A program made the translations under genes and the position numbers. A model generated the notes under the pieces. It was not told the origin of the DNA. It was given only the letters and a program-made list of their open reading frames with translations, and did no database searches. A stretch of DNA of 64,000 bases from assembly GCA_024274785.1 (NCBI GenBank), contig JAJSAM010000026.1, positions 47,048-111,047 on the forward strand, given 5' to 3'. The DNA comes from Planctomycetota bacterium (GTDB taxonomy: Bacteria > Planctomycetota > JAJSAM01). Shown piece after piece: positions 11,231-59,502 of the stretch; within the stretch, counting starts at the first letter, position 1; every line of letters starts with the position of its first letter.

Positions 11231-12765
11231 ACGACGACAAGTTGCCCGACTGCTGCGAGAACGCCGACTGCTGCGGCAATGGTGAGAAGAAAAGGCAGAA
11301 GAAAGAAGTCGAGCTGACCCCTTACGGCCGCATCCGTCGGAAGGGCAAGCGGGAGCGCGTCTCGGTTCCCATGCCGGAGCAGGAGCCGCTCGTTCGCGCG
11401 AAGAACTTCGACGAGGTGCCCCTCGGCTACATGGCCGAGATGGCGATGCAGGAGGCGCAGCGTTGCTTCCAGTGCAAGGGTGAACGCGCCAGGTGCGTAC
11501 CCAACTGTCCGGTCGGGATCAACATCCCCAAGTTCCTCGACGAGGTGGCGGAGGGCGACTTCCAGGCGGCGATCATGACCGTGATGGAGGACAACCTCCT
11601 TCCGGCCATCTGCGGCCGGGTCTGCCCGCAGGAAGAGCAGTGCCAGATGGAGTGCATCGGCGGCAAGCGGGGCGAGCCGGCGATGATCGGCCGTCTCGAG
11701 CGCTTCGTGGCCGACTGGTACGCGGTGCACGGTGAGAAGCCCGAGCCGATGACGCCGCCCGAAGGCGCGCAGAAGGTCGCCGTCGTCGGTTCCGGCCCGT
11801 CCGGCCTGACCGCCGCCGCGGACCTCGCGAAGAAGGGGTACGACGTCACCATCTTCGAGGCGTTGCACCGTCCGGGCGGCGTGCTGGTCTACGGTATTCC
11901 GGAGTTCCGGCTGCCGAAACGGATCATCGATCGCGAGGTGGAGAACATCAAGCTCCTCGGCGTGAAGATCTACCTGAACGCCATGATCGGGAAGCTGTTC
12001 ACCGTCGACACCCTGATGAACGAGAAGGGGTTCGAGGCGGTCTACCTCGGCGTGGGAGCGGGCCTGCCCTACATGATGAACGTTGCCGGAAAGAACCTGA
12101 AGGGCGTCTACACCGCGAACGAGTTCCTCTCGCGCGTGAATCTGATGAAGTCCTACGAGTTCCCGAAGTCGCCGACCCCGCTCAAGGTCGGTGAGAACGT
12201 TGCGGTGGTCGGTGGCGGAAACGTGGCCATGGACAGCGTCCGCACCGCGCTCCGCATCGGTGCTGAGAACGTGCACCTCGTCTACCGCCGCTCCGAGGCC
12301 GAGATGCCGGCCCGGAACGAGGAGATCCACCACGCGAAGGAGGAGGGCGTGCAGTTCCACCTCCTGACCAATCCGGTGGAATTGATCGGTGATGACGATG
12401 GCCACGTTCGGGCCGTCAAGTGTGTCAAGATGGAACTCGGCGAGCCCGACGACTCCGGCCGCCGCCGCCCGGTGGTGATCGAGGGCAGCGAGCACGAGCT
12501 CCTGGCGGACAACTTCGTCTTCGCCATCGGCCAGGGCCCGAACCCGATCCTCCCGGCCACCACACCGGGCCTGAAGACGGACAAGTGGGGCTGCTTCCTG
12601 GTGGACGACAGTCAGATGACCTCGATCCCCGGCGTCTTCGCCGGCGGGGACATCACCGGCGGCGCGACGGTCATCACCGCGATGGGTGACGGCCGGACCG
12701 CGGCGAACGGCATCGACCGGTATCTCACCGCCCGGCGGGAGGAGGCGGAGGCAGTGAGGCAGTGA
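11227..12765 (+). CDS. nfnB: NfnB / SudA / GltD-family NAD(P)H-dependent iron-sulfur flavoprotein (two 4Fe-4S clusters, FAD, NADPH).
   Basis: Cysteine clusters CFQCKGERARCVPNCP and CGRVCPQEEQCQMEC. Dinucleotide folds VAVVGSGPSGLTAAADLAKKG and VAVVGGGNVAMD. Confidence 0.85.
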   Translation: MNDDKLPDCCENADCCGNGEKKRQKKEVELTPYGRIRRKGKRERVSVPMPEQEPLVRAKNFDEVPLGYMAEMAMQEAQRCFQCKGERARCVPNCPVGINIPKFLDEVAEGDFQAAIMTVMEDNLLPAICGRVCPQEEQCQMECIGGKRGEPAMIGRLERFVADWYAVHGEKPEPMTPPEGAQKVAVVGSGPSGLTAAADLAKKGYDVTIFEALHRPGGVLVYGIPEFRLPKRIIDREVENIKLLGVKIYLNAMIGKLFTVDTLMNEKGFEAVYLGVGAGLPYMMNVAGKNLKGVYTANEFLSRVNLMKSYEFPKSPTPLKVGENVAVVGGGNVAMDSVRTALRIGAENVHLVYRRSEAEMPARNEEIHHAKEEGVQFHLLTNPVELIGDDDGHVRAVKCVKMELGEPDDSGRRRPVVIEGSEHELLADNFVFAIGQGPNPILPATTPGLKTDKWGCFLVDDSQMTSIPGVFAGGDITGGATVITAMGDGRTAANGIDRYLTARREEAEAVRQ

Positions 12766-12903
12766 GGGCTCGTCTGGAAATAAGTGCGACCGTTGCACCG
12801 AGAGCGCCGCTGCGCCCGACCCAGCAAGGCGCGAGGAGGGGGCACCTGACTGGTTTCAGCCGACGAGCAACGCAGCTTTGCGTGATGCAGCTGCCCTTCG
12901 AAC
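12766..12903 (-). repeat. Intergenic repeat family 1, copy A. It lacks the left terminal inverted repeat and starts immediately after the nfnB stop codon.
   Basis: The reverse complement aligns almost base-for-base with 20771..20933. The shared core is TTCGAGGGC.GCTGCATC...GTTGCTCGTCGGYTGAAACCAG..AGGT.C.CCCTCCTCG...GGTGCAACGG.CGCAC..ATTTCCAGACGAGCC. Confidence 0.8.
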
Positions 12904-20770: not shown

Positions 20771-20933
20771 GGGCCCGTCTGGAAATAACTGCTGCATTCG
20801 AGGGCCGCTGCATCCCGCTACGCTTTGTTGCTCGTCGGTTGAAACCAGCAAGGTTGCGCCCTCCTCGAGCCTCGTTTCTCGGGCGCCGCGGCGCTCTCGG
20901 TGCAACGGGCGCACAAATTTTCCAGACGAGCCC
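20771..20933 (+). repeat. Intergenic repeat family 1, copy B. Full length with 15-bp terminal inverted repeats GGGCYCGTCTGGAAA.
   Basis: The left end is GGGCCCGTCTGGAAATAA and the right end TTTTCCAGACGAGCCC. The core is shared with copies A, C and D. Confidence 0.8.
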
Positions 20934-27772: not shown

Positions 27773-27792
27773 CGGGACAGATCGGTCCTCAG

Positions 27793-27946
27793 GGGCCGCG
27801 CAAGAATAACTACGGGGTTCGAGGGCGGCTGCATCCCCTTGAGCCGCGTTGCTCGTCTGTTGAAACCAGTGAGGTTGCGCCCTCCTCGCGCCTTGCCGGG
27901 CGGGCGCATCAGCGCTCTCCGTCCTGCGAAGATATTCTTGCGCAGC
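27793..27946 (+). repeat. Intergenic repeat family 1, copy C. The core is conserved, but the terminal inverted repeats differ from copy B (GCGCAAGAATA ... TATTCTTGCGC).
   Basis: The core TTCGAGGGCGGCTGCATCCC...GTTGCTCGTCTGTTGAAACCAGTGAGGTTGCGCCCTCCTCG aligns with copies A, B and D. Confidence 0.8.
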
Positions 27947-33407: not shown

Positions 33408-33923
33408 TCAGCGCGTGGCCGCGGCCATCTCTTCGATCATGCTGTTGACCGGCAGGCCGTCGATCCGGTAGCCGCCGTCTTCCGTCAGCAGGTCGTAGGA
33501 ACGCTCCACACCACGATGCCGGGTCGATCGAACGACGATCCGTCCGGCAATCGCATCGCCGGGGTGGAGGTCGGCGGCGCGGATGCCGTCGATCCGGTGC
33601 AGGTTGCTCAGCGTCACCCGCTCGCCGGTGGCGAACTCGACCATCAGGTATTCCGAGGTAGCCGGGTCCTCGACGTACTCGTGCTTCTGAAGGATCCGCA
33701 CCGGTTCGCCGGAGAGTCCGATCACCAGATCTCCGGCGCGAAGGGTCTCCAGGGGGAGGGACCCCGAAGGAGTATCCACCAGGGCGCCCTCGGGGATACA
33801 GCCGAACTTGAGTTTCACCGAGGCTGCCTGGATCCCGAGGTTGAGCAGACCGCAGCCGGAGAGCAGAACGGTGGCGGCCACCAGGCCAAGCAGCGCCAGA
33901 TGCCGTGAAGTTCTGTTCTCCAT
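33408..33923 (-). CDS. Hint-domain (Hedgehog/intein-like) lipoprotein.
   Basis: The start MENRTSRHLALLGLVAATVLLSGC is a lipobox, with an AGGAGG Shine-Dalgarno. The Hint N-terminal block is CIPEGALVDTPSGSLPLETLRAGDLVIG. The C-terminal block is YDLLTEDGGYRIDGLPVNS. Confidence 0.65.
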   Translation of the reverse strand: MENRTSRHLALLGLVAATVLLSGCGLLNLGIQAASVKLKFGCIPEGALVDTPSGSLPLETLRAGDLVIGLSGEPVRILQKHEYVEDPATSEYLMVEFATGERVTLSNLHRIDGIRAADLHPGDAIAGRIVVRSTRHRGVERSYDLLTEDGGYRIDGLPVNSMIEEMAAATR

Positions 33924-34028
33924 GGTGCCCTCCTGGCGCGGAAAAGCGCCGAGTCGAACCGACAATCTTACCTGCTTGTACCTGTTCTCATCGGCAATCC
34001 CGGGGTGAAAGAGCGGTATCCGCCGCCG

Positions 34029-35245
34029 AAAAGGATACGGAGGCAGACACCTTTCACCAACCTACGTTGAATCGTACTCAAGCAATCTGAGCGGAATTCC
34101 GTGCCCGTTGCTCCCTTTGTGCGACTTCCTTCCTGGAGGTCACCATGTCCAGACGAAGCCGCGAGGACGGACCGGATACTTTGCACCATGTCTACAACCG
34201 GGGCATTGCCCGGCGAACGGTATTCGAGAACAGGGACGACGTGCGCTACTTCCTTTCGCGACTGGCGCGGGTCCACCGCAAGGGCCTGCTGGAAATCCAC
34301 GGGTTCAGCTTCCTCACCACTCACTACCACCTGATCGTCCGAAGCCCCGTCGGCAAGCTCCCTCGGGCGATGCAGGAAACCAGCAACGCGTTCGTTCGTT
34401 GGTTCAATCGCAAGCGAAGGAGGGACGGAGCGCTCTTTCGCGGCAGGTTCGGCTCGCGACGCGTCCAGTCTCAGGCCTACCTCACCCGCCTCGTACCCTA
34501 TGTGGACCAGAACAGCACCGGTGCCAGGCTGGCAAGCCATGCCGGACTCTACCCGTACGGAAGTGCGCGGCTGTTCCAGCAGGGGCAGAGTCCGAAGTGG
34601 CATACGCGGGAGCTGATCGAGAGGCTCGCCTGCCAGATGTCCGGTTTCCGGGAATTCAGCCCATCGGTGTACCGCACCTGCTTTGGAGCCGAGCTGACTC
34701 CGGCCGAAGCCGAGTGGCTCAAGCTACGCATCCGTTGCCCGCGCGATGGCCCGGATCCGCTGGATGACCTGGTCGGGGCTGCGCCCGAGCGCGTACGGGA
34801 GTGGATGGTTCGCAAGGCGAGCCTGGCGGACGGCACCAGACCTGGTCTCCCTCTGCTGGCACCTTCAATCGCGATGGAAGTCCTGCGGGAAGGGCAACTG
34901 CGGGAACCGGATCTGCAGTTTCGGCTTCGGAGGTATTGGCGTCCCGCCTGGCTCCTATTGGCGGCCGGCTTCCTTCGAGACGAGTGCGGCTTGACCATCG
35001 CAGCTGCGGCCAGGTTCTTGAACCGACCGGCTTCCAGTGTCTCGGTCTTGGCAAATGCACACCGGGAACTGCTCATCGCCGACCCGACCTATGCTGCGCT
35101 CGCAGCGGAGTTCCTGGCGGAGGCGCTCTGGCGCCTGCACGGCTCGGCGACGGCCGGGATTCGCGCGGACGGATCCGAACGCAGGTGAGATTGCTCCGGG
35201 GCGGATGAACGTAGGTTGGTGAAAGGTGTCTGCCTCCGTATTTCC
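34029..35245 (+). mobile_element. REP-associated tyrosine transposase (RAYT / IS200-like) unit bounded by 36-bp perfect inverted repeats.
   Basis: The left repeat at 34032..34070 is ATACGGAGGCAGACACCTTTCACCAACCTACGTT. The right repeat at 35207..35243 is its reverse complement. The left flank also folds as CGGTATCC-N11-GGATACGG. Confidence 0.7.
34145..35188 (+). CDS. HUH-superfamily tyrosine transposase of the RAYT / IS200 TnpA-like type.
   Basis: The N-terminus carries HVYNRG. The HUH motif is TTHYHLIV. The C-terminal region after the catalytic domain is extended, giving 347 aa. Confidence 0.75.
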   Translation: MSRRSREDGPDTLHHVYNRGIARRTVFENRDDVRYFLSRLARVHRKGLLEIHGFSFLTTHYHLIVRSPVGKLPRAMQETSNAFVRWFNRKRRRDGALFRGRFGSRRVQSQAYLTRLVPYVDQNSTGARLASHAGLYPYGSARLFQQGQSPKWHTRELIERLACQMSGFREFSPSVYRTCFGAELTPAEAEWLKLRIRCPRDGPDPLDDLVGAAPERVREWMVRKASLADGTRPGLPLLAPSIAMEVLREGQLREPDLQFRLRRYWRPAWLLLAAGFLRDECGLTIAAAARFLNRPASSVSVLANAHRELLIADPTYAALAAEFLAEALWRLHGSATAGIRADGSERR

Positions 35246-35282
35246 CGAGTACACTCCGAACTCACCGTCACAGCGCGACCCA

Positions 35283-35390
35283 GCCGCAATGGAGGGGCGA
35301 CCTCCGGGCGACCGTGCTGGCGGTCCGGGAGCGTCACGCAGAATCTGCGAGCGCCGCGAAGATTCTGAACGTCAGTACTGCAGGGAGACG
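35283..35390 (+). repeat. Intergenic repeat family 2, copy 1, immediately upstream of the OmpW-like gene.
   Basis: About 90% identical to 59399..59502 (GCCGCAATGGAGGGNCGACCTCCGGGCGAC.GTGCTGG.GGTCCGGGAGCG.CACGC.GAATCTGCG.GCGCCGCGAAG.TT..GAACGTCAGTACT). Confidence 0.75.
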
Positions 35391-35393
35391 ATC

Positions 35394-35930
35394 ATGAAGC
35401 GATTGGCCATCCTCGCCGTGGTGTTCGGTCTTGCCGCCTGCTCCGTCACGCCGAGCGAGTTTTCACGTTCCGGTCTCTATGCCGGGGCTTCCGTGATCGG
35501 TGCCGCTTCGGACTTCGACAACATTTCTGTCGTGGACGATCTCGACAAGGTCGACTACACCGCGGGCATCGGCCTCCGCGGCGGATACCGGTTCCTGGAT
35601 CGTTTTGCCATCGAAGCCGCTTACGAGGGGGGGATGGACTGGCGGAAGCACGACGTCAGGATGCAGACCATCGCCCTCCAGGGGAAGGTCTACCCGCTCA
35701 CCGGCGCGGTCCAGCCGTATGGTCTGATCGGCGGTGGCTACGCTTCGGGGAAGGTCTCGGGTACCAACCTGGATGACCGTGCCGCATTCTGGCGCCTCGG
35801 TGCCGGCCTCGAGGTCTACATCCTTCCGTTCCTGCCGCTGTTCTTCGAACTGGACTATACGTTGCCGACCGGCGACCTCTCCGATCTGCCGTACGCCACC
35901 GGCCATCTCGGAGCGCTGTTCCGCTTCTGA
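35394..35930 (+). CDS. Small outer-membrane beta-barrel protein (OmpW/OmpA-like), probable lipoprotein.
   Basis: The start MKRLAILAVVFGLAACS has a GGGAG Shine-Dalgarno. The sequence shows alternating hydrophobic beta-strand patterning and a C-terminal aromatic residue (LFRF). Confidence 0.65.
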   Translation: MKRLAILAVVFGLAACSVTPSEFSRSGLYAGASVIGAASDFDNISVVDDLDKVDYTAGIGLRGGYRFLDRFAIEAAYEGGMDWRKHDVRMQTIALQGKVYPLTGAVQPYGLIGGGYASGKVSGTNLDDRAAFWRLGAGLEVYILPFLPLFFELDYTLPTGDLSDLPYATGHLGALFRF

Positions 35931-59290: not shown

Positions 59291-59347
59291 GGGCCCGTCT
59301 GGAGTTAACTGCCGCATTCGAGGGCCGCTGCATCCCGTCGTCCGTCA
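59291..59347 (+). repeat. Intergenic repeat family 1, copy D. It is a 5' fragment only (left terminal inverted repeat plus the first core block).
   Basis: GGGCCCGTCTGGAGTTAACTGCCGCATTCGAGGGCCGCTGCATCCCG matches the first 57 bp of copy B. It then diverges into unrelated sequence. Confidence 0.7.
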
Positions 59348-59398
59348 TTCCCCCTGCCCCGACTCGCTGCAATCTGAATCTCCGCGCACTGCTGCCCG

Positions 59399-59502
59399 GC
59401 CGCAATGGAGGGTCGACCTCCGGGCGACTGTGCTGGTGGTCCGGGAGCGCCACGCCGAATCTGCGTGCGCCGCGAAGGTTTCGAACGTCAGTACTACAAG
59501 AT
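59399..59502 (+). repeat. Intergenic repeat family 2, copy 2.
   Basis: About 90% identical to 35283..35390. Substitutions are spread across codon positions. It lies between convergent genes. Confidence 0.75.

Follow-up and report, generated by a model that had tools for sequence, protein, structure and literature searches.

A gene for a putative tyrosine transposase, bracketed by a long inverted repeat, lies near the middle of a 64,000-nt stretch of contig JAJSAM010000026.1 from a Planctomycetota bacterium (the window; all positions count from its first letter). This arrangement raises the question of what kind of system the gene and its repeats form together, and which DNA the enzyme would mobilise. 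The original prediction, made from the sequence alone, had proposed a REP-associated tyrosine transposase (RAYT), an enzyme that would mobilise hairpin-forming repetitive extragenic palindromic (REP) sequences rather than its own gene. Our results point to another answer: segment 34036-35240 is probably a TIRtron, that is, a gene of the TIRYT class bracketed by the terminal inverted repeats of its own enzyme. These names were introduced for RAYT-like genes flanked by terminal inverted repeats instead of REPs, the proteins being called TIRYTs and the units TIRtrons; the repeats of some of them were reported as dispersed families, often as dimers (Di Nocera 2013, PMC3733652). The window element belongs to a long-tailed Planctomycetota branch of this known kind.

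The open reading frame of 347 amino acids (Table 1) is preceded, 8 nt 5' of its ATG, by a GGAGG ribosome-binding site, and the HVYNRG and HYH motifs from which its nature had been guessed are indeed present, at residues 15-20 and 60-62. An inverted repeat brackets the gene, as had been claimed for 34032-34070 and 35207-35243, but it is perfect over 34 bp only, the proposed perfect 36-mer having two mismatches; the same search gave 0 matches in 100 shuffles. Inward of the perfect part the arms extend imperfectly to 65 nt at 80% identity (34035-34099 and 35177-35241). Both contain the inner box AGCAATCT, at 34081-34088 and 35188-35195, and the right copy adjoins the stop codon. The window repeat reads ATACGGAGGCAGACACC... 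Reading frame, ribosome-binding site, catalytic residues and perfect repeats are all intact in this copy; together with the large dispersed repeat populations of close relatives described below, this speaks against the inert relic that the original prediction had also considered. The window copy may be active, dormant or domesticated. Rfam gave no match over the whole window, and neither did a scan of 33850-35450 for promoter and terminator consensus sequences. The exact 34-nt repeat has 0 matches in the GTDB species-representative genomes.

Table 1. Features of the predicted mobile unit, in window coordinates.
Feature	Position	Strand	Description	Evidence
Whole mobile unit (probable TIRtron)	34036..35240	+	1205 bp, TACGG... 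to ...CCGTA	Tip-to-tip similarity to L003, varied neighbourhoods of homologues
Left terminal inverted repeat, perfect part	34035..34068	+	Tip: A followed by TACGGAGGCAG	Fits family consensus R-TAC S G W G Y C
Left repeat, imperfect inner continuation	34069..34099	+	Contains inner box AGCAATCT at 34081-34088	
Gene for TIRYT-class Y1 HUH tyrosine transposase or nuclease (predicted)	34145..35188	+	347 amino acids; coordinates include the stop codon	
Catalytic HUH/Y1 domain (predicted)	34145..34579	+	Residues 1-145	Alignment, Foldseek, profile vs 4er8
Helical middle module	34586..34849	+	Residues ~148-235; motif DPLDDLVGAAP..V..WM.RKA.LADGT	
Putative C-terminal DNA-binding domain, fold like DnaA domain IV (helix-turn-helix)	34862..35149	+	Residues ~240-335	Foldseek, profile, Pfam matches of homologues
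Right repeat, imperfect inner continuation	35177..35207	-	Inner box CCGGAGCAATCT (35188-35199, - strand); overlaps the stop codon	
Right terminal inverted repeat, perfect part	35208..35241	-	Pairs with 34035-34068	
Repeat sequence of the element, as search string			TACGGAGGCAGACACC	

The catalytic part of the protein is well defined. H60 and H62 form the HUH motif, Y119-x3-N123 the tyrosine motif, and S140 corresponds to the conserved serine of GSA; H60, H62, Y119, D121, N123 and S140 are among the invariant columns of an alignment of 42 sequences (A1). The AlphaFold2 model of the whole protein (predicted local distance difference test, pLDDT, 94; predicted TM-score, pTM, 0.91) has as its top Foldseek match in the PDB the structure of E. 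coli TnpA_REP with a REP hairpin (4er8_A; E 2.8e-6, TM-score 0.75 on the target), and the next matches are TnpA of ISDra2, IS608 and IS200, 2xma and 2vjv being among the matched structures. The family profile likewise recovers 4er8 from the PDB sequences (E 0.0065), and the HUH and tyrosine motifs align in register; phmmer with the single protein against the PDB sequences gave no match. The homology search returned 197 proteins at E<=0.001 among the candidates scored. Among the 120 homologues listed, the majority are 310-390 amino acids long and most cover about 95% of the query; many bear the name 'REP element-mobilizing transposase RayT' at source, and about half have a precomputed PF01797 match. 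Sequence and model together assign the protein to the Y1 HUH tyrosine transposases and, within the IS200/RAYT superfamily, to the RAYT side; its catalytic activity is predicted.

Past the catalytic domain the protein continues for about 200 residues, not the 150 first estimated. Modelled separately, residues 148-347 reach a pLDDT of 82, with values above 90 over the last 100 residues. Foldseek matches this C-terminal model to 3pvp and 1j1v, structures of the DnaA DNA-binding domain (TM-score 0.72-0.74 on the target), with probabilities up to 0.98 and weak E-values. The family profile touches DnaA domain IV weakly, at E 0.58, and among the 42 homologues scanned singly, helix-turn-helix (HTH) families were matched by 13 (Sigma70_r4_2) and by six (HTH_23). 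Structural modelling of the extension, as the original prediction had proposed, thus suggests a tail ending in a putative DNA-binding domain like DnaA domain IV, all E-values being weak. A profile of the tail alone found 763 clusters (50% identity) at E<=1e-10 among 1.84 billion representatives, and in every full-length protein listed the tail sits after an N-terminal domain of about 147 residues. The window copy is thus not peculiar in its extension, which belongs to the regular architecture of a sizeable family. Nor is it unusual in kind, as a C-terminal HTH resembling Bac_DnaA_C, HTH_23 or HTH_28 was already described for TnpA_Y1 subclass 2.1, with which most TIRYTs have been equated (Quentin 2018, PMC6006769).

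The limits of the unit were given by its closest relative, at locus L003, which shares 86% nucleotide identity with the window over 34036-35240, exactly from tip to tip. Neither the sequence outside the tips nor the downstream genes are related, and from so abrupt an end of the similarity we conclude that the unit is discrete and has moved. The neighbouring genes of more distant homologues (L001 and L002, 70% amino acid identity; L004, 64%) differ from each other and from those of the window. When L001 is compared with L089, the similarity of the orthologous upstream gene ends at its stop codon, one base before TACGG, and the downstream context of L089 differs too. As a separate observation, the N-terminus of the L003 gene is seemingly disrupted (L003:1058-1125): the called gene starts at 1126 and encodes 327 amino acids, while an upstream ATG at 1059 meets a stop. 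This copy may be decaying, its right repeat arm carrying mismatches as well.

The repeats travel with the gene. The comparison drew on 83 homologous loci; where the genome is named, it is nearly always one of the Planctomycetota, Engelhardtia mirabilis Pla133 among them. A flanking inverted repeat of at least 20 nt is found in about 55 of them, and 49 of the 65 elements examined have the tip motif on both arms. These repeats open with R-TAC(G/C)G(A/T)G(Y)C, the hyphen separating the tip from the base outside it. Aligning 107 arms on their outer ends, with TAC as the anchor, gave a purine at position -1 in 105 arms, and after TAC the succession S, G (106 of 107), W, G (94), Y, C (103), N, G (83); positions 5, 7, 9 and 11 are G, G, C and G, and the consensus is R-TACSGWGYCNG. 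Inward of the tip the sequence varies by lineage, and the two arms of one element stay matched. The repeats are bipartite: within about 55 nt, each combines an outer tip box (R followed by TACGGAGGCAG...) with an inner box (CCGGAGCAA). The outer box is conserved over the whole protein family, the inner one is common to the closest lineages; the window inner box AGCAATCT matches CCGGAGCAA, the inner end of units of about 50 nt in a sister assembly. A 6-bp hairpin adjacent to the tip occurs in some lineages (GGAGCC-A-GGCTCC, GGTGTC-A-GACACC). We considered it as a defining feature of the family and rejected it: at least five of the six pairs are formed in just 21 of 83 distinct arms, about a quarter, four of six in the window, and the covariation is weak, pairing being barely above the expectation from independent columns.

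Several homologous loci have more elaborate ends. In the Engelhardtia mirabilis Pla133 chromosome (L052:1266-1421 and 2528-2683) the gene is flanked on both sides by the same near-perfect palindrome of 156 nt, built of nested inverted repeat units, and similar doublets of 77-91 nt stand at each end in L037 and L078. One homologue is bracketed by 300-bp inverted repeats of 99.7% identity (L070:1151-1450 and 2500-2799), which read like the coding sequence of another insertion sequence and suggest a composite arrangement. In L104 (7470-7515) the repeat tip is tandemly duplicated over 32 nt, including three flanking bases GAG (GAGTACGGAGGCAGACACCTTTTTCCAGACTC, twice).

To place the enzyme, profile A1 was run with hmmsearch against the sequences rebuilt from supplement 5 of PMC3733652. 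Thirteen published TIRYTs scored 97-136 bits over profile positions 1-145, some of them to about 200, whereas classical RAYTs scored 10-60 bits and the E. coli protein 19 bits. The proposed RAYT-type HUH transposase is thus correct as to the Y1 HUH enzyme and its RAYT side, but by profile the protein groups with the TIRYTs and not with the classical RAYTs. It shares with TIRYTs a RAYT-like catalytic domain (the start M.R.PR...HHV.NRG, N/T-H-[YF]-H, G.LF/W.GRF, Y-[IV]-x-x-N and the WSS/GSA serine), long terminal inverted repeats in place of REPs on either side of the gene, an HTH or DnaA_C-like C-terminal tail, few copies per genome and, in some genomes, repeats dispersed as dimer families. It differs in being about 100 residues longer (347 vs 216-255, median 238), in the conserved middle module DPLDDLVGAAP...LADGT, which is shared just partly, its start (profile positions to about 200) being common to some published TIRYTs, and in belonging to a family almost confined to Planctomycetota. 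Subclass 2.1, equated by Quentin with group 1 of Bertels, comprises long proteins whose motifs read NH[YF]H and Y[IV]xLNP, and is devoid of REPs (PMC6006769); here the corresponding T/N-H-[YF]-H and Y[IV]DxN[PSA] agree in part, and the W[EQ] motif is replaced by F-R. Group 1 is among the more insertion sequence-like RAYT groups (Bertels et al., PMC5581495).

A number of observations weigh against reading the segment as a mobile TIRtron. The original prediction was to fall if Y1_Tnp was not recognised, and the window protein has no Pfam match at E<=1, PF01797 (Y1_Tnp) included; NCBIfam NF047646 (REP_Tyr_transpos) does match residues 22-138 (E 8e-11), but with 42 bits, under its cut-off of 80. 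Because 37 of the 42 homologues scanned singly match PF01797, and because fold and profile agree, we attribute both shortfalls to limited sensitivity. The tip R-TACSGWGYC differs from the published GGGGWSAS, which is absent from the repeats and was reported for most, not all, TIRYT repeats (PMC3733652). Neither that study nor PMC6006769 reported catalytic activity, biochemistry or mobility of TIRYTs, and for the enzyme considered here the cleavage site, the strandedness of the DNA and the role of the HTH are inferred. A comparison of the flanks of all repeat units with all fetched loci for an empty site returned just shared-insertion pairs and the orthologue L089, and the same search through orthologues of the neighbouring lipoprotein gene met with insufficient synteny. 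As no empty site was found, the invariant TA that terminates the unit may be part of the element or a target duplication. Only the two flanking repeat units are present in the window, where queries of 36 nt and 16 nt (<=3 mismatches each) found no further copy. Finally, homologues within one genome are old paralogues of 67-77% nucleotide identity, each with its own repeat variant, a picture more in keeping with a mostly resident gene than with an insertion sequence that is actively copying itself.

This last point leads to the most serious alternative, namely a resident copy, domesticated or dormant, that is vertically kept, either has a role in host DNA processing or is silent, and mobilises nothing. 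Besides the age of all within-genome paralogues, it would explain why the plasmid collection PLSDB yields matches of <=34% identity, nearly all restricted to the N-terminal domain, and no full-length family member. It would also agree with the lack of another repeat unit in 64 kb, when the sister assembly has up to three doublets within a 15-kb stretch of a 20-kb contig; this comparison covers 64 kb of the source genome. A merely resident gene is harder to reconcile with 34-bp perfect repeats, an intact reading frame with its ribosome-binding site and an 86%-identical copy in a different genomic context, and we regard it as unlikely, if worth keeping in mind, beside a TIRtron.

A sister lineage has a dispersed population of such repeats. 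When metagenome contigs were scanned, the tip TACGGAGGCAGACACYTTT turned up at 78 loci, mostly from assembly SWCD01, which also has the 70%-identical gene. With <=3 mismatches these loci contain at least 178 repeat units, among them 48 convergent pairs of exactly 87 nt, in which a stem of some 32 bp closes a 23-nt loop that includes CCGGAGCAA. The other units are a few pairs of 53-60 nt and 68 unpaired copies, mostly of about 50 nt and ending in CCGGAGCAA. The 87-nt doublet folds at -25.9 kcal/mol (z -6.5) and looks like a deletion derivative that kept one full and one truncated repeat unit. A homologous gene was found once among all the tip-scan loci. This distribution is the RAYT/REPIN pattern, made of inverted repeats and not of REPs. 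As for units of the window type, none in the metagenome loci comes closer than 4 mismatches in 33 nt. Other metagenome contigs (L090, L120, L123, L142) carry palindromic doublets of a separate family, mostly about 60 nt long (TAYGGAGGGAGACGCCTTTTTAAAA...TTTTAAAAAGTGTCTCCCTCC) and with a related tip; the fetched stretches of these contigs contain no gene of the transposase family.

The sister lineage gives some weight to the initial idea of a classical REP/RAYT system, in which the flanking repeats are REP hairpins and the enzyme mobilises REPs or REPINs and not its own gene. With the classical systems (4er8; Pseudomonas groups 2 and 3) the window element shares the fold, E. coli TnpA_REP being the top structural match, the catalytic residues and cognate repeats inverted around the gene. 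In the sister lineage, unlike the 64 kb of the window, one gene also stands beside a scattered population of at least 178 units rich in hairpin-forming doublets, as expected of a RAYT, and so are the diverged within-genome paralogues, each with its own repeat type. The repeats themselves argue otherwise. Folded singly as single-stranded DNA, the two arms of the window do no better than shuffled sequences (z -0.76 and +0.04; single units range from -0.8 to +1.1), contrary to the hairpins that had been postulated, and the local fold proposed for the left flank (CGGTATCC...GGATACGG) is a 6-bp stem, again no better than shuffled (z -0.77). The flanking units lack palindromes and are accordingly to be classed as terminal inverted repeats, not as REPs, so that the REP hairpin reading is not supported. 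The tip hairpin rejected above is rare, covaries weakly and is incompletely paired in the window. In addition, the tag is RTAC and no GTAG is present, the catalytic domain is distant from that of classical RAYTs (19 bits for E. coli, and TIRYT scores well above the classical range), a long DNA-binding tail is predicted, and the gene-carrying unit has itself been transposed or transferred as a block. A classical REP/RAYT system thus appears improbable, more so than a resident copy.

TA borders every unit at both ends, in an R-TA...TA-Y symmetry, which would fit a TA target duplication and hence a third explanation: the repeats and the 87-nt doublets would be parts of a DDE transposon system of the IS630/Tc1 type that targets TA, and the Y1 gene would be a mere passenger. 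Being palindromic, the dinucleotide may just as well come from the repeat itself. A passenger would hardly remain associated with the repeats over about 55 loci spanning 36-86% protein identity, nor would the inner repeat be expected to change with the protein while its arms stay matched, and no DDE gene lies inside the 1.2-kb unit; we give this explanation very little credit. Still less credible is an IS200/IS605-type insertion sequence with subterminal hairpins, for despite the significant fold matches to TnpA of ISDra2, IS608 and IS200, and a presumably common 5'-phosphotyrosine chemistry on single-stranded DNA, the element has Y119-x3-N123, the class 2 or RAYT-like form, in place of Y-x3-Q (Table 1 of PMC6006769), long symmetric inverted repeats in place of asymmetric subterminal hairpins, no tnpB, and no set of multiple near-identical copies (paralogues being 67-77% identical).

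Returning to the TIRtron, a mode of action can be proposed by analogy with IS608/ISDra2 and E. coli TnpA_REP. The protein would dock on its own repeats, where the HTH tail most likely recognises the portion that is duplex or stem, possibly the inner box in particular. The HUH site with Tyr119 would cut single-stranded DNA at the conserved tip, become joined to it through a 5'-phosphotyrosyl link and reseal the strands. Whatever lies between two inverted copies of the repeat could in this way be excised and reinserted, be it the 1.2-kb gene unit or the gene-less 87-nt doublets with their 32-bp-stem hairpin. As with IS608 and RAYT, the reaction would most likely take place on the single-stranded DNA of replication forks.

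It is tempting to go further and to see in the long-form Planctomycetota TIRYTs a distinct HUH transposition system, whose tail would read the bipartite repeat, whose Y1 domain would cut a palindromic RTAY tip, and which would drive both the 1.2-kb unit and an 87-nt population similar to REPINs or to miniature inverted-repeat transposable elements (MITEs). We put this forward tentatively, as a rather unlikely extension of the TIRtron assignment. If true, it would be the first clear HUH element bounded by terminal inverted repeats, possibly duplicating TA, and a tractable model for REPIN-like populations arising from an autonomous element. TIRYTs and TIRtrons are already catalogued (2013, 2018), and as an annotation the window offers something ordinary, one intact mobile-element gene with its ends. 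The value of the family is comparative: with exact boundaries, a family-wide tip motif, a bipartite repeat and one gene beside about 50 uniform 87-nt doublets, it is a good candidate for asking whether an HUH enzyme acts on terminal inverted repeats and what the role of the DnaA-like tail is.

The window contains other repeats, to which the original prediction had tentatively linked the transposase unit; those families have different termini, and the possibility that the element is inserted into a copy of one of them was tested and rejected. A MITE-like family of about 160 nt is present at 20771-20933 and 27785-27943, inverted and truncated at 12765-12902, and as its left 47 nt only at 59291-59337. 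Its members end in a distinct terminal inverted repeat, GGGCYCGTCTGGAAA, which bears no relation to the repeats of the transposase unit, and copies at 82-92% identity occur in the metagenome loci L099, L124 and L151. A segment of 104 nt is found twice, at 35279-35382 and 59395-59498, with 89% identity. The first copy begins 37 nt past the right repeat and is not part of the element. The copies end shortly before start codons, about 12 nt before the ATG at 35394 and 2 nt (from 59498) before that at 59501, and may represent a shared leader or regulatory region. On the other side of the element, the motif CATCGGCAATCCC (33990-34002) lies upstream of a Hint-domain lipoprotein gene (33408-33923, - strand); it is conserved in two distant orthologous loci, L162 and L166, where conservation does not extend to the intergenic sequence around it.

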